DNA of 64,000 nucleotides from Escherichia coli. Its GTDB lineage: Bacteria; Pseudomonadota; Gammaproteobacteria; Enterobacterales; Enterobacteriaceae. This document shows positions 39,576 through 47,344 of the stretch, in pieces. Location of the stretch: the NCBI RefSeq assembly GCF_030013205.1, contig NZ_CP122648.1; one strand, given 5' to 3'. Made by a program: the position numbers and the translations under genes. Each line of letters opens with the position of its first letter. The stretch's first letter is position 1. Below the pieces are notes generated by a model, which saw nothing but the letters and a program-made list of their open reading frames with translations, had not been told where the DNA came from and did no database searches.

Positions 39576-40904
39576 TTAGCGGCCTTTTGCCAGATATTGC
39601 TCCATCTCTTCTTCCGGCACCATTCCACCTCCCGTCGCCCACACCAGATGAGTGGCATTACGCAGTTGTTCTGCGCTGAAACCGTGCATCTGTTGGTAAC
39701 TTACTGATGCGCACACGCGCTGAGGCCCGGCCATACCCGCCAGTGCCGAAGGTTCAAGACGAATGCCTTCTTCCTGCGCCAGCCAGCCAAGCATGTCATA
39801 CATGGTTTGATCGCTAAGGGTATAGAAGCCATCCAGTAGACGCTCCATTGCCCGCCCGACAAAGCCTGATGCGCGACTAACTGCAAGGCCATCCGCTGCG
39901 GTAAGGTTGTCGATACCAATATCCTGAACAGAAATCTGATCGTGTAATCCAGTATGGACGCCTAACAACATACAAGGGGAGTGCGTTGGTTCGGCAAAAA
40001 AGCAGTGAACATGATCGCCAAACGCCAGTTTAAGTCCGAATGCGACGCCACCAGGACCACCGCCAACACCACACGGCAGATAGACAAACAGAGGGTTATC
40101 AGCATCGACGATACGACCTTGCTCGGCAAATTGCGCTTTAAGACGCTGGCCTGCGACGGAGTACCCAAGGAACAACGTGCGGGAATTCTCGTCATCAATA
40201 AAGAAACAGTTCGGGTCAGACTGCGCTGCTTTACGTCCTTCCTCGACGGCAACACCATAATCTTGCTCATATTCCACGACCGTAACGCCATGGCTGCGCA
40301 GTTTCGCTTTTTTCCACGCCCGGGCATCAGCAGACATATGCACTGTCACCTTAAAGCCAATGCGGGCGCTCATAATGCCGATTGATAACCCCAGATTTCC
40401 GGTTGAGCCCACAGCAATGCTGTATTGACTAAAGAACTGTTTAAACTCCGGAGACAGTAGTTTGCTGTAGTCATCTTCAGGCGTCAGCAACCCCGCTTCC
40501 AGAGCCAGTTTTTCTGCGTGTGCCAGGACTTCATAAATCCCGCCGCGTGCTTTTATGGAGCCGGAAATGGGTAAATGGCTATCTTTTTTCAGTAGCAGTT
40601 GCCCGCTGATCGGTTGTTGATATTCCTTTTCCAGCCGTTTTTGCATAGCCGGAATGGCAACCAGTTCTGATTCAATAATCCCCCCAGTGGCAGCAGTTTC
40701 AGGAAATGCTTTTGCCAGATAGGGTGCAAAACGAGATAAGCGCGCATGGGCGTCCTGAACATCCTGTTCGGTCAGGCCAACATAAGGTAAACCTTCAGCC
40801 AATGAGGTCGTGCCAGGATTAAACCAGGTGGTTTCTTGAAGAGCAACCAGATCCTTTACCAACGGATACTGGGCGATGAGCGAATTCATTTTAGCGTTTT
40901 CCAT
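39576..40904 (-). CDS. dsdA: D-serine dehydratase (PLP-dependent)
   Basis: 442 aa, [31 protein letters not shown]... Confidence 0.93.
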
Positions 40905-41140: not shown

Positions 41141-41382
41141 AATGATCCATATTTATATTTTCTTCTCCAGATTGGCGATGCCAGTTGGCATGTTTTACCT
41201 ACTTGCCTACATGGTTACTCGTTGGCAAGAACAGAGGCGGAATTGGGTACAATTGTCCGGGAATTATTGTTATTTTTTATTGTATTGCCGTGTCGGGTGA
41301 TAGGGCGTCGAGAATATCGTTGGATCTCGCCAGTGACGTCTGTTTCTGCTACAGTGCCCGTTTTACGGCAAACGGCTTGGGT

Positions 41383-42378
41383 ATGGCTTCATTAAAGGAT
41401 GTCGCACGCCTGGCGGGAGTGTCGATGATGACAGTCTCCCGGGTGATGCATAATGCAGAATCTGTGCGTCCTGCAACGCGTAACCGCGTATTGCAGGCAA
41501 TCCAGACCCTGAATTATGTTCCTGATCTTTCCGCCCGTAAGATGCGCGCTCAAGGACGTAAGCCGTCGACTCTCGCCGTGCTGGCGCAGGACACGGCCAC
41601 CACTCCTTTCTCTGTTGATATTCTGCTTGCCATTGAGCAAACCGCCAGCGAGTTTGGCTGGAATAGTTTTTTAATCAATATTTTTTCTGAAGATGACGCT
41701 GCCCGCGCGGCACGTCAGCTGCTTGCCCACCGTCCGGATGGCATTATCTATACTACAATGGGGCTGCGACATATCACGCTGCCTGAGTCTCTGTATGGTG
41801 AAAATATTGTATTGGCGAACTGTGTGGCGGATGACCCAGCGTTACCCAGTTATATCCCTGATGATTACACTGCACAATATGAATCAACACAGCATTTGCT
41901 CGCGGCGGGCTATCGTCAACCGTTATGCTTCTGGCTACCGGAAAGTGCGTTGGCAACAGGGTATCGTCGGCAGGGATTTGAGCAGGCCTGGCGTGATGCT
42001 GGACGAGATCTGGCTGAGGTGAAACAATTTCACATGGCAACAGGTGATGATCACTACACCGATCTCGCAAGTTTACTCAATGCCCACTTCAAATCGGGCA
42101 AACCAGATTTTGATGTTCTGATATGTGGTAACGATCGCGCAGCCTTTGTGGCTTATCAGGTTCTTTTGGCGAAGGGGGTACGTATCCCGCAGGATGTCGC
42201 CGTAATGGGCTTTGATAATCTGGTTGGCGTCGGGCATCTGTTTTTACCGCCGCTGACCACAATTCAGCTTCCACATGACATTATCGGGCGGGAAGCTGCA
42301 TTGCATATTATTGAAGATCGTGAAGGGGGAAGAGTGACGCGGATCCCTTGCCCGCTGTTGATCCGTTGTTCCACCTGA
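41383..42378 (+). CDS. cscR: Sucrose operon repressor CscR (LacI family)
   Basis: MASLKDVARLAGVSMMTVSRVMHNAESVRPATRNRVLQAIQTLNYVPDLSARKMRA... HTH plus periplasmic-binding-like domain; start placed at the internal Met (331 aa). Confidence 0.85.
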   Translation: MASLKDVARLAGVSMMTVSRVMHNAESVRPATRNRVLQAIQTLNYVPDLSARKMRAQGRKPSTLAVLAQDTATTPFSVDILLAIEQTASEFGWNSFLINIFSEDDAARAARQLLAHRPDGIIYTTMGLRHITLPESLYGENIVLANCVADDPALPSYIPDDYTAQYESTQHLLAAGYRQPLCFWLPESALATGYRRQGFEQAWRDAGRDLAEVKQFHMATGDDHYTDLASLLNAHFKSGKPDFDVLICGNDRAAFVAYQVLLAKGVRIPQDVAVMGFDNLVGVGHLFLPPLTTIQLPHDIIGREAALHIIEDREGGRVTRIPCPLLIRCST

Positions 42379-42385
42379 TATTATG

Positions 42386-43819
42386 TTAACCCAGTTGCCA
42401 GAGTGCTCCATGTTGCAGCACAGCCACTCCGTGGGAGGCATAGAGCGACAGTTCCCGTTCTTCTGGCTGCGGATATATTCGGCTACTCATCACCGCCTCC
42501 CCGTCGTTAATAAATACTTCCACGGATGATGTATCGATAAATATCCTTAGGGCGAGCATGTCACCCTGCGGGAGGGGAATACTACGGTAGCCATCTAAAT
42601 TCTCGTGTGGGTAATACCGCCACAAAACAAGTCGCTCAGATTGGTTATCAATATACAGCCGCATTCCAGTGCCGAGCTGTAATCCGTAATGTTCGGCATC
42701 ACTGTTCTTCAGCGCCCACTGCAACTGAATCTCAACTGCTTGCGCGTTTTCCTGCAAAACATATTTATTGCTGATTGTGCGGGGAGAGATAGATTGATGC
42801 TGCTGGCGTAACGACTCAGCTTCGTGTACCGGGCGTTGTAGAAGTTTGCCATTGCTCTCTGATAGCTCGCGCGCCAGCGTCATGCAGCCTGCCCAGCCTT
42901 CACGTTTTGAGGGCATTGGCGATTCCCACATATCCATCCAGCCGATAACAATACGCCGACCATCCTTCGCTAAAAAGCTTTGTGGTGCATAAAAGTCATG
43001 CCCGTTATCAAGTTCAGTAAAATGCCCGGATTGTGCAAAAAGTCGTCCTGGCGACCACATTCCGGGTATTACGCCACTTTGAAAGCGATTTCGGTAACTG
43101 TATCCCTCGGCATTCATTCCCTGCGGGGAAAACATCAGATAATGCTGATCGCCAAGGCTGAAAAAGTCCGGACATTCCCACATATAGCTTTCACCCGCAT
43201 CAGCGTGGGCCAGTACGCGATCGAAGGTCCATTCACGCAATGAACTGCCGCGATAAAGCAGGATCTGCCCCGTGTTGCCTGGATCTTTCGCCCCGACAAC
43301 CATCCACCATGTGTCGGCTTCACGCCACACTTTAGGATCGCGGAAGTGCATGATTCCTTCTGGTGGAGTGAGGATCACACCCTGTTTCTCGAAATGAATA
43401 CCATCCCGACTGGTAGCCAGACATTGTACTTCGCGAATTGCATCGTCATTACCTGCACCATCGAGCCAGACGTGTCCGGTGTAGATAAGTGAGAGGACAC
43501 CATTGTCATCGACAGCACTACCTGAAAAACACCCGTCTTTGTCATTCTCGTCTCCTGGCGCTAGCGCAATAGGCTCATGCTGCCAGTGGATCATATCGTC
43601 GCTGGTGGCATGTCCCCAGTGCATTGGCCCCCAGTGTTCGCTCATCGGGTGATGTTGATAAAACGCGTGATAACGATCGTTAAACCAGATCAGGCCGTTT
43701 GGATCGTTCATCCACCCGGCAGGAGGCGCGAGGTGAAAATGGGGATAGAAAGTGTTACCTCGGCGCTCGTGAAGTTTTGCTAGTGCGTTTTGCGCCGCAT
43801 GTAATCGAGATTGCGTCAT
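42386..43819 (-). CDS. cscA: Sucrose-6-phosphate hydrolase / invertase CscA (GH32)
   Basis: GH32 motifs (HLAPPAGWMNDPNG; FRDP; WECPD). Confidence 0.88.
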   Translation of the reverse strand: MTQSRLHAAQNALAKLHERRGNTFYPHFHLAPPAGWMNDPNGLIWFNDRYHAFYQHHPMSEHWGPMHWGHATSDDMIHWQHEPIALAPGDENDKDGCFSGSAVDDNGVLSLIYTGHVWLDGAGNDDAIREVQCLATSRDGIHFEKQGVILTPPEGIMHFRDPKVWREADTWWMVVGAKDPGNTGQILLYRGSSLREWTFDRVLAHADAGESYMWECPDFFSLGDQHYLMFSPQGMNAEGYSYRNRFQSGVIPGMWSPGRLFAQSGHFTELDNGHDFYAPQSFLAKDGRRIVIGWMDMWESPMPSKREGWAGCMTLARELSESNGKLLQRPVHEAESLRQQHQSISPRTISNKYVLQENAQAVEIQLQWALKNSDAEHYGLQLGTGMRLYIDNQSERLVLWRYYPHENLDGYRSIPLPQGDMLALRIFIDTSSVEVFINDGEAVMSSRIYPQPEERELSLYASHGVAVLQHGALWQLG

Positions 43820-44034
43820 TTTTATCATCCTGGTTAAGCAAATTTGGTGAATTGTTAACGTTAACTTTTATAAAAATAAAGTCCCTTACTTTCATAAATG
43901 CGATGAATATCACAAATGTTAACGTTAACTATGACGTTTTGTGATCGAATATGCATGTTTTAGTAAATCCATGACGATTTTGCGAAAAAGAGGTTTATCA
44001 CTATGCGTAAGTCAGATGAATTTAAGGGAAAAAA

Positions 44035-44958
44035 ATGTCAGCCAAAGTATGGGTTTTAGGGGATGCGGTCGTAGATCTCTTGCCAGAATCAGACGGGCGG
44101 CTACTGCCTTGTCCTGGCGGCGCGCCAGCTAACGTTGCGGTGGGAATCGCCAGATTAGGCGGAACAAGTGGGTTTATAGGTCGGGTCGGTGATGATCCTT
44201 TTGGTGCGTTAATGCAAAGAACGCTGCTAACTGAGGGTGTCGATATCACGTATCTGAAGCAAGATGAATGGCACCGGACATCCACGGTGCTTGTCGATCT
44301 GAACGATCAAGGAGAACGTTCATTTACGTTTATGGTCCGCCCCAGTGCCGATCTTTTTTTAGAGACGACAGACTTGCCCTGCTGGCGACATGGCGAATGG
44401 TTACATCTCTGTTCAATTGCGTTGTCTGCCGAGCCTTCGCGTACCAGCGCATTTACTGCGATGACGGCGATCCGGCATGCCGGAGGTTTTGTCAGCTTCG
44501 ATCCCAATATTCGTGAAGATCTATGGCAAGACGAGCATTTGTTCCGCTTGTGTTTGCGGCAGGCGCTACAACTGGCGGATGTCGTCAAGCTCTCGGAAGA
44601 AGAATGGCGACTTATCAGTGGAAAAACACAGAACGATCGGGATATATGCGCGCTGGCAAAAGAGTATGAGATCGCCATGCTGTTGGTGACTAAAGGTGCA
44701 GAAGGGGTGGTGGTCTGTTATCGAGGACAAGTTCACCATTTTGCTGGAATGTCTGTGAATTGTGTCGATAGCACTGGGGCGGGAGATGCGTTCGTTGCCG
44801 GGTTACTCACAGGTCTGTCCTCTACGGGATTATCTACAGATGAGAGAGAAATGCGACGAATTATCAATCTCGCTCAACGTTGCGGAGCGCTTGCAGTAAC
44901 AGCGAAAGGGGCAATGACAGCGCTGCCATGTCGACAAGAACTGGAAGGTGAGAAGTAA
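44035..44958 (+). CDS. cscK: Fructokinase CscK (PfkB/ribokinase family)
   Basis: 307 aa, MSAKVWVLGDAVVDLLPE...; DTTGAGDAF-type motif (DSTGAGDAFVAG). Confidence 0.88.
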   Translation: MSAKVWVLGDAVVDLLPESDGRLLPCPGGAPANVAVGIARLGGTSGFIGRVGDDPFGALMQRTLLTEGVDITYLKQDEWHRTSTVLVDLNDQGERSFTFMVRPSADLFLETTDLPCWRHGEWLHLCSIALSAEPSRTSAFTAMTAIRHAGGFVSFDPNIREDLWQDEHLFRLCLRQALQLADVVKLSEEEWRLISGKTQNDRDICALAKEYEIAMLLVTKGAEGVVVCYRGQVHHFAGMSVNCVDSTGAGDAFVAGLLTGLSSTGLSTDEREMRRIINLAQRCGALAVTAKGAMTALPCRQELEGEK

Positions 44959-45019
44959 ACGGCGAGGCCGCTCTTATCTCTAAATAGGACATGAATTTTT
45001 TAACGACAGGCAGGTAATT

Positions 45020-46267
45020 ATGGCACTGAATATTCCATTCAGAAATGCGTACTATCGTTTTGCATCCAGTTACTCATTTCTCTTTTTTATTTCCTGGTCG
45101 CTGTGGTGGTCGTTATACGCTATTTGGCTGAAAGGACATCTAGGATTAACAGGGACGGAATTAGGTACACTTTATTCGGTCAACCAGTTTACCAGCATTC
45201 TATTTATGATGTTCTACGGCATCGTTCAGGATAAACTCGGTCTGAAGAAACCGCTCATCTGGTGTATGAGTTTCATTCTGGTCTTGACCGGACCGTTTAT
45301 GATTTACGTTTATGAACCGTTACTGCAAAGCAATTTTTCTGTAGGTCTAATTCTGGGGGCGCTCTTTTTTGGCCTGGGGTATCTGGCGGGATGCGGTTTG
45401 CTTGACAGCTTCACCGAAAAAATGGCGCGAAATTTTCATTTCGAATATGGAACAGCGCGCGCCTGGGGATCTTTTGGCTATGCTATTGGCGCGTTCTTTG
45501 CCGGTATATTTTTTAGTATCAGTCCCCATATCAACTTCTGGTTGGTCTCGCTATTTGGCGCTGTATTTATGATGATCAACATGCGTTTTAAAGATAAGGA
45601 TCACCAGTGCATAGCGGCGGATGCGGGAGGGGTAAAAAAAGAGGATTTTATCGCAGTTTTCAAGGATCGAAACTTCTGGGTTTTTGTCATATTTATTGTG
45701 GGGACGTGGTCTTTCTATAACATTTTTGATCAACAACTCTTTCCTGTCTTTTATGCAGGTTTATTCGAATCACACGATGTAGGAACGCGCCTGTATGGTT
45801 ATCTCAACTCATTCCAGGTGGTACTCGAAGCGCTGTGCATGGCGATTATTCCTTTCTTTGTGAATCGGGTAGGGCCAAAAAATGCATTACTTATCGGTGT
45901 TGTGATTATGGCGTTGCGTATCCTTTCCTGCGCGTTGTTCGTTAACCCCTGGATTATTTCATTAGTGAAGCTGTTACATGCCATTGAGGTTCCACTTTGT
46001 GTCATATCCGTCTTCAAATACAGCGTGGCAAACTTTGATAAGCGCCTGTCGTCGACGATCTTTCTGATTGGTTTTCAAATTGCCAGTTCGCTTGGGATTG
46101 TGCTGCTTTCAACGCCGACTGGGATACTCTTTGACCACGCAGGCTACCAGACAGTTTTCTTCGCAATTTCGGGTATTGTCTGCCTGATGTTGCTATTTGG
46201 CATTTTCTTCCTGAGTAAAAAACGCGAGCAAATAGTTATGGAAACGCCTGTACCTTCAGCAATATAG
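45020..46267 (+). CDS. cscB: Sucrose:H+ symporter CscB (oligosaccharide:H+ symporter MFS)
   Basis: 415 aa 12-TM MFS, LacY-like. Confidence 0.88.
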   Translation: MALNIPFRNAYYRFASSYSFLFFISWSLWWSLYAIWLKGHLGLTGTELGTLYSVNQFTSILFMMFYGIVQDKLGLKKPLIWCMSFILVLTGPFMIYVYEPLLQSNFSVGLILGALFFGLGYLAGCGLLDSFTEKMARNFHFEYGTARAWGSFGYAIGAFFAGIFFSISPHINFWLVSLFGAVFMMINMRFKDKDHQCIAADAGGVKKEDFIAVFKDRNFWVFVIFIVGTWSFYNIFDQQLFPVFYAGLFESHDVGTRLYGYLNSFQVVLEALCMAIIPFFVNRVGPKNALLIGVVIMALRILSCALFVNPWIISLVKLLHAIEVPLCVISVFKYSVANFDKRLSSTIFLIGFQIASSLGIVLLSTPTGILFDHAGYQTVFFAISGIVCLMLLFGIFFLSKKREQIVMETPVPSAI

Positions 46268-46708
46268 ACGTAAACTTTTTCCGGTTGTTGTCGATATTTC
46301 CATATCCCTCAACCGGAAAATAATAATACAAAAATGCTTAGCCCAACTAATAATCACCTAATCCAAACGCCTCATTCATGTTCTGGTACAGTCGCTCAAA
46401 TGTACTCCGGATACGCGGTTCGCTGATTTCCAGGACATTGTCGTCATTCAGCGACCTGTCCCGAGTATCACGGGCCTGCGAATTCATCAAGGAATGCATT
46501 GCAGAGTGAAGTATCGAGTCACGCCATATTTCGCTATCAGGATTCTGTATGATGGTTACATCGCCCGGCCCAGGGCTGTTTAGTCATCAGCGCTTTCTGA
46601 CAGTGCTGAGATTTCAACCTGTTGCAGTAAAAATGAGTAGATATAGGGCAAGTGTGCTGCCAAACCCATCTTTTACGGGGTGAAGGTAGATATTGTTAGA
46701 AGGGTATC

Positions 46709-46723
46709 TGGTGTCCCCTGCAG
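46709..46723 (-). repeat. att-core repeat: copy of the argW tRNA 3' end (reverse complement of CTGCAGGGGACACCA)
   Basis: tggtgtcccctgcag with no tRNA body attached; a second degenerate copy lies at 59970-59988. Confidence 0.6.
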
Positions 46724-46796
46724 ACATCTACTTGAAGCGGCAGGGGATTGATTGGAATGGTGTTTTTTAGGTGTGAGAAATATTTTACCCGCTATT

Positions 46797-46997
46797 TTAC
46801 CCATTGGCGCGGCTTAAGAGCTTATTTTTGAATTCACAATGGTCACGATATAACCATCTTGCTCGCCCGTGGATAACTTTGGCTTTTGGCAGGTCGCCGG
46901 ACTTAATCCGGTCGTAGATGAAGGTTTTACCAAAGCCAGTATCAGCCATGATGAATTTCAAATCAACCAGGGAATCAGGCTGTAGTTCGTGTTGCAT
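46797..46997 (-). CDS. AlpA/Vis-family phage transcriptional regulator / excisionase-like protein
   Basis: 66 aa with the AlpA-type motif …TGFGKTFIYDRIKSGDLPKAKVIHGRARWLYRDHCEF…. Confidence 0.65.
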   Translation of the reverse strand: MQHELQPDSLVDLKFIMADTGFGKTFIYDRIKSGDLPKAKVIHGRARWLYRDHCEFKNKLLSRANG

Positions 46998-47344
46998 GAG
47001 TGCTATCTCCGAATAGGGAATCGAACCTGCAAATCAGGCAAGAAAAAACCGCCATCAGGCGGTTTGGTGTTCTTTCAGTTCTTCAATTCGAATATTGGTT
47101 ACGTCTGCATGCGCTATCTGCGCCCATATCATCCAGTGGTTATAGCAGTCGTTGATGTCCTCTGCTTCGATAAGGAGAAGAAATTCCCAATTACTCAAGA
47201 GCTATACGAGCGACTGGAAAGCGTCATCCATGATTACGATGGTGAAATCAGTTTATGCGAGGCGATTGGCACACTTGAATTGCTGAAGCAGTCATTGATT
47301 GAAGGCGCGAAAGAGTCCTTAGCCTGAAATAACAACTAAGTGAG

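Follow-up and report, generated by a model that had tools for sequence, protein, structure and literature searches.

The 64,000 nucleotides of E. coli DNA analysed here, referred to throughout as the window, contain the csc sucrose cluster and, to its right, a prophage integrated at the tRNA gene argW; between the two lies a short open frame on the minus strand. The features on which the argument depends are listed below from left to right.

45020..46267, plus strand: the sucrose permease gene cscB, left neighbour of the fragment and convergent with it (ORF list, annotated record)
46268..46363, no strand: spacer from the cscB stop to the fragment, with an 11-bp perfect inverted repeat (46277-46287 / 46310-46320)
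46347..46499, minus strand: 50-aa ORF starting with ATG and including a non-native TAG stop (46347-46349); in the ORF list, and in RefSeq as WP_001316510.1, "DUF4942 domain-containing protein"
46350..46583, minus strand: the open frame noted earlier, 78 codons, whose first start is the ATG at 46499 (translation and ORF list)
46364..46555, minus strand: DUF4942 segment B, equivalent to gene nt 254-445 (codons 85-149) of a 281-codon relative, 75% DNA identity
46556..46644, minus strand: DUF4942 segment A, equivalent to gene nt 110-198 (codons 37-66), in another frame than segment B and with two TAA stops
46645..46708, no strand: spacer of ~64-66 nt from the fragment to the att core, present in csc-positive genomes only
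46709..46723, minus strand: att core TGGTGTCCCCTGCAG; its reverse complement forms the last 15 nt of argW (by identity to argW of the prophage-free strain L002); attR of the torI-bearing prophage
46797..46997, minus strand: torI, the excisionase gene of an argW-integrating prophage of the Sf6/HK620/KplE1 type, the right neighbour within the prophage (ORF list, annotation)

The record NZ_CP062203.1, which matches the 531-nt query (46270-46800) with 100% identity, carries dsdA, dsdX' (dsdX without its N-terminus), cscR, cscA, cscK, cscB, the fragment, torI and a degraded P22/Sf6-like prophage. The replacement of dsdC and part of dsdX by csc at the argW hotspot has been described (PMC3032704, PMC4366372, PMC11251922), and these papers cite Jahreis et al. 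2002 and Moritz and Welch 2006 for the argW-dsdCXA/cscRAKB variable region; the window has the same arrangement, with csc in place of dsdC and part of dsdX beside argW. A DUF4942 fragment between cscB and argW receives no mention in the three papers. On the far side of the csc genes, dsdA (39576-40904, minus strand) is an uninterrupted ORF of 442 aa in the window, and in K_EC180, 100% identical at 46270-46800, it is annotated as frameshifted; this discrepancy reflects a true difference between strains or else an error of sequencing in the K_EC180 record.

Translation of 46347-46700 returned exactly the peptide of the first-pass annotation (ending in SEIWRDSILHSAMHSLMNSQARDTRDRSLNDDNVLEISEPRIRSTFERLYQNMNEAFGLGDY and a stop), in which a minus-strand frame of about 70 codons had been seen to run without a start until an internal Met; no ATG, GTG or TTG precedes the ATG at 46499 within the 78 codons, as judged from the translation and the ORF list. 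The frame placed earlier at 46330-46560 is therefore real, but its right limit was set too short, as it stays open to 46583, and DUF4942-like DNA continues still further right, to ~46644, in another frame (blastn and local alignment). Length is no evidence in itself that such a frame was ever a gene: stop-to-stop frames of at least 78 codons number 200 in the window, where mononucleotide shuffles yield 110 +/- 7. This commonness is what speaks for a random frame with spurious similarity, a reading to which we give practically no credence: the Pfam score lies above the gathering threshold, intact DUF4942 genes match the fragment with E values of 3e-15 (tblastn) and 6e-36 (blastn), and a second, colinear DNA segment matches them with E 5e-11. 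A chance frame is thus refuted by the homology statistics, and it is homology to DUF4942, not length, that sets this frame above chance. The earlier proposal of a gene remnant in place of a random frame was borne out by Pfam (PF13708), BLASTP, tblastn and blastn alike.

The 78-aa frame matches PF13708 (DUF4942) with 38.3 bits (E 1.5e-9; gathering score 25 bits) over profile positions 5-62 of 190, and the 50-aa ORF, with 26.1 bits, also exceeds the gathering score. Only 58 of the 190 profile positions are kept, so that the fragment has no complete DUF4942 domain, nor does it have an intact DUF4942 frame with a start and a native stop. In BLASTP, the frame is 51% identical to residues 76-151 of a 280-aa full-length DUF4942 protein (E 7e-21). 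The intact relatives consulted were WP_001280481.1 (280 aa) and WP_001280435.1 (281 aa); the domain scan, made on the 280-aa protein, placed the domain at residues 87-276 (profile positions 1-190). Records of a plasmid collection contain DUF4942 genes with 49-53% protein and 72-75% DNA identity to the fragment (tblastn, blastn). With the 78-aa query, a word-indexed search of 5.8 billion protein clusters returned the same short relics and no intact relative, and an exhaustive HMMER search of 1.84 billion representatives gave no intact relative above ~53% identity. Because the best intact relative is only ~53% identical, these databases offer no orthologue from which the original gene could be reconstructed.

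The comparison with intact genes shows the fragment to be an internal piece, extending from codon ~37 to codon ~149 of ~281, with the first ~36 and the last ~130 codons gone. It had been taken for the C-terminal remnant of a gene. This cannot be upheld, since the frame corresponds to profile positions 5-62 of 190 and to residues 76-151 of 280, with ~130 C-terminal residues absent; both gene ends are missing, and the stop after GLGDY (46347-46349) is not the native one. Segment A, invisible to BLASTP, was found at the DNA level only, where blastn placed it in line with segment B at 74% identity over 88 nt (E 5e-11). In its own frame it reads IYSFLLQQVEISALSESADD, a stop, TALGRAM and a second stop, against I(D/N)TLIRQLAEISAMTESIGGKTALDWAMK in the intact protein. 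Between the two segments, gene nt 199-253 are absent (blastn and local alignment), and this loss of 55 nt shifts the frame. It is flanked by the short direct repeats GCGATGAAA and GCAATGAAA, each of which encodes Ala-Met-Lys; such an arrangement is the signature of slippage or of a short-homology deletion. Compared with the intact genes, the fragment thus combines the loss of both ends with an internal deletion and stops, and possesses neither a start nor a native stop.

For the spacers 46268-46363 and 46645-46708, no significant similarity emerged from a comparison with intact genes and the DNA flanking these (sensitive blastn, tblastx) or with Pfam at E <= 10, and the second of them has no Pfam match in any frame. 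This 46645-46708 spacer may represent the attL-proximal arm of a lost island. Scans of 46000-47200 revealed no Rfam family and no excess of promoters or terminators within the fragment interval.

Intact DUF4942 genes have a characteristic setting. At both of the two loci examined, such a gene is the last one of an island of the CP4/P4-integrase type, in which the module order is DUF932, antirestriction, RadC, DUF987, CbeA/CbtA, DUF5983, DUF957 and DUF4942; it is transcribed outward, and the core genes follow directly (infA at one locus, mug at the other). The Shigella SRL PAI has the same module, with orf56 = L0010 as DUF4942 (PMC6980539). The proteins of these CP4/P4 islands (WP_001280481.1, WP_001280435.1, SRL PAI orf56/L0010) share 51% amino acid and ~75% DNA identity with the part retained in the window. 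No solved structure matched the intact relative in a PDB sequence search, and neither the fragment nor the intact relative had a match in NCBIfam or PADLOC. PHROG profiles were hit by the intact protein only: three of the families have no known function, and one is labelled "DNA methyltransferase", the DUF4942 domain being one part of its longer profile.

Unlike the genes in these islands, the fragment has no DUF5983, DUF957 or CbtA/CbeA genes upstream: the att core is 66 nt away, and comparison with the DUF957 gene gave only a 21-nt insignificant match (E 0.088). At the same time, it lies at a tRNA attachment site, on the argW strand downstream of the argW 3' end, and points away from the tRNA. 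Intact examples face outward at the end of the island in the same manner, and the orientation therefore suggests that the fragment occupies the place of an island-terminal DUF4942 gene.

The prophage on the right can be separated from this history. K-12-type genomes and free phages of the Sf6/HK620 type align to the window only from 46709 rightwards; therefore, 46709-46723 is the attR core of the prophage, and the DNA left of the core is not phage DNA. Prophage-free strains (L002, L008, L010, L011) carry the fragment with identical boundaries, 66 nt from an intact argW, in the order dsdA-dsdX'-cscR-cscA-cscK-cscB-fragment-argW-yfdC. The first-pass annotation had the acquisition of csc and prophage DNA destroy the gene; as far as the prophage is concerned, this is contradicted, since strains with an empty argW carry the same fragment and the prophage hence had no part in the breakage. 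In K-12-type strains, dsdC ends 95 nt from the core and there is no fragment. The core occurs as a single copy in the 64-kb window, and since no second one is present, attL and argW lie beyond 64000.

These observations also bear on the idea of a resident gene that was broken when csc and the prophage arrived and of which the frame would be the C-terminal remnant. This idea agrees with the facts that the fragment is a gene remnant, lies between cscB and the prophage att core and is strictly linked to csc; but the match covers the first third of the DUF4942 domain and ends at a non-native stop, prophage-free strains have an identical fragment, and phage homology begins only at 46709, so that this idea must be regarded as very improbable.

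Some further observations concern the prophage itself, which looks degraded from 46709 to ~49100 and beyond. In the record identical over 46270-46800, torI is very soon followed by a partial gene for the terminase small subunit, a partial gp4, and then genes for packaged-DNA stabilisation and the tail. In the window, the argW 3' sequence is split: its last 15 nt form the att core, and the next 16 nt (GGAATCGAACCTGCAA, plus strand) are found at 47017-47032, 293 nt deeper in the prophage and just upstream of torI, with the excisionase gene sitting between two consecutive pieces of tRNA sequence. In a K-12-type genome, this 16-mer precedes torI by 20 nt. The block 46709-47106 is present whole in free Sf6/HK620-like phages and therefore belongs to the attP-xis module of that phage family. 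An Rfam match to the sRNA STnc130 at 46947-47074 (plus strand) stayed below threshold, with 30.6 bits and E 0.025 where the gathering score is 55; it overlaps a hairpin resembling a bidirectional terminator (47046-47065).

On the left side, the fragment is tied to csc. The interval 46270-46723 is present, at a coverage of at least 80%, in 2619 of 5426 complete E. coli genomes, and a probe joining the cscB 3' end to the fragment (45970-46660) also finds 2619 genomes at this coverage (2646 with any match); none of the matches listed is a genome with the fragment only. The fragment is thus apparently always joined to cscB, the identity of the two sets of genomes being taken from their equal counts. 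The few genomes that depart from this linkage are secondary losses. In ETEC L7_E1373, ISEc46 replaces the fragment, with the junction at 46344/46345. The corresponding segment of that strain (L003 6076-8121, NZ_LR882990.1) has ISEc46 (IS200/IS605, tnpA and TnpB) and an N-terminal integrase remnant in place of the fragment and the spacer up to argW, and its similarity to the window stops at 46344, 3 nt short of the stop codon of the fragment.

A degenerate cscB C-terminal pattern, applied across genome contigs in the search for csc outside E. coli, led to one locus, in Escherichia sp. MOD1-EC7003 (L012, NZ_PTRE01000132.1), where csc is 95.3% identical over window 41273-46296 in another context. 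As read from the sequence, an ORF for an lpxP-like acyltransferase lies on the cscR side, and an IS66-type element lies 30 nt past the cscB stop, within the loop of the 46277-46320 inverted repeat. It follows from this context that csc moves as a unit, from ~41273 to at least 46296; and since csc homology reaches 46296 and DUF4942 homology ends at 46364, the csc/fragment junction falls within 46297-46363.

This mobility, with csc standing beside an lpxP-like gene in MOD1-EC7003, is one reason to consider that the junction of fragment and cscB already existed in a donor, from which a single block came in by recombination at argW and took the place of dsdC-dsdX'. No case of the fragment without cscB is seen, and divergence from K-12-type strains starts exactly at the att core, as if everything from the core to dsdX' were foreign. 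However, no donor was found, and in the only non-E. coli csc locus recovered, the IS66-type element cuts the flank 30 nt past cscB, which leaves this locus silent on a linked fragment. We regard such a joint import as possible though not favoured; it is a variant of the explanation preferred here and not a true alternative to it, the DUF4942 fragment being dead in either case. Returning to the explanation preferred here, in which csc arrived in an event of its own, the earlier proposal that csc acquisition destroyed the gene is plausible as regards the 3' truncation, which the strict csc linkage and the presence of dsdC at this place in K-12 would fit; no longer version was found from which the event could be reconstructed, and no genome with a longer or intact DUF4942 copy at argW was encountered.

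The allelic variation of the fragment in E. coli is informative as to its present state. Both truncations and the 55-nt deletion are present in each of seven alleles, among them that of L007 at 92% identity; being common to all seven, these changes are older than the diversification of csc in E. coli. The fragment has a mean pairwise divergence of 5.1%, compared with 5.9-9.1% for the flanking spacers and 2.1% for cscB; the highest value, ~9%, belongs to the 46645-46708 spacer. Lineage-specific indels of 6 nt and 2 nt are seen among the alleles; L007, L010 and L011 have in-frame stops within the 78-codon frame, and P0021/P0026 represent a variant with a 6-codon deletion. The main frame is open for all 78 codons in the window allele and in several others, and the start codons vary by allele, the called products having 44 to 85 aa or being missing altogether. 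The dN/dS ratio, obtained from seven alleles and few sites, was 0.49 for the fragment versus 0.06 for cscB, with similar dS (0.084 versus 0.079). The value of 0.49 instead of 1.0 is formally compatible with weak residual constraint on the fragment. No conserved start and stop under purifying selection, as expected of a functional small gene, could be recognized. To judge from the sequences, the fragment behaves as a pseudogene fragment and appears to decay neutrally, and the annotated ORFs of 50-73 aa would be by-products of the surviving frame rather than a protein-coding gene.

Could the short ORF (50-73 aa, depending on the allele) nevertheless be a functional small protein, or have been exapted, for instance into an RNA element lying downstream of argW/torI? 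PGAP calls a CDS here in many genomes, the frame is open in several alleles, and dN/dS lies below 1. Against this stand the change of start from allele to allele, with no start before codon 29 of the frame in the window allele, the stops in L007, L010 and L011, the 6-codon deletion in P0021/P0026, and an inconsistent annotation that leaves many genomes without any feature; moreover, what is left amounts to 58 of 190 domain positions, and neither an Rfam match nor a promoter or terminator signal accompanies it. Such a function is accordingly highly unlikely. A related conjecture, to which an equally slight probability is attached, is that the 50-78-codon frame, comprising the first third of DUF4942, might be expressed by read-through from argW/torI and kept as a small protein or RNA tied to the argW hotspot or to csc expression; were this true, read-through expression could account for the survival of an open frame in several lineages and for a dN/dS below 1.

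By far the most probable explanation sees in the frame an internal, non-functional piece of a DUF4942 (PF13708) gene, a relic of an old argW island that is decaying neutrally. According to this explanation, an old island of the CP4 type would have been located at argW; a deletion would then have removed the DNA from ~66 nt inside the argW-proximal end of the island to codon ~37 of the DUF4942 gene, and a separate event would have put csc in place of dsdC and the 5' part of dsdX, taking away the 3' half of the DUF4942 gene and the end of the island. In this reconstruction, the deletion and the csc replacement could have occurred in either order. The remnant would subsequently have decayed through the slippage-type deletion of 55 nt, stops, and lineage-specific nonsense mutations and indels, and the present prophage would have come later, inserting at the argW core and leaving the fragment untouched. 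The case for an island at argW is drawn from the orientation of the fragment, its position and the habits of the family.

With regard to annotation, the 50-aa ORF is identical to the CDS WP_001316510.1 annotated in NZ_CP062203.1. RefSeq WP_001316510.1 and its siblings (P0003, P0005, P0012 and others; 44-85 aa) come from the same locus, the other alleles being 85-98% identical; they are presented as protein-coding, whereas the evidence gathered here is that of a pseudogene fragment. Across RefSeq genomes, the relic at 46347-46583 appears as a "DUF4942 domain-containing protein" with varied starts, as a "hypothetical protein" or without a feature. In thousands of E. coli genomes it bears the first of these names from RefSeq/PGAP, and it should be given as a pseudogene or as no feature. 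The fragment is an ordinary pseudogene of a known family in a well-known variable region, already contained in RefSeq, and carries little biological weight. It can nevertheless be used as a stable marker of the cscB-argW junction, showing that the right-hand junction is one and the same in all csc loci of E. coli. Additionally, it suggests that a CP4-type island was present at argW before or alongside csc, which would add an extra step to the history of the argW-dsd/csc hotspot.
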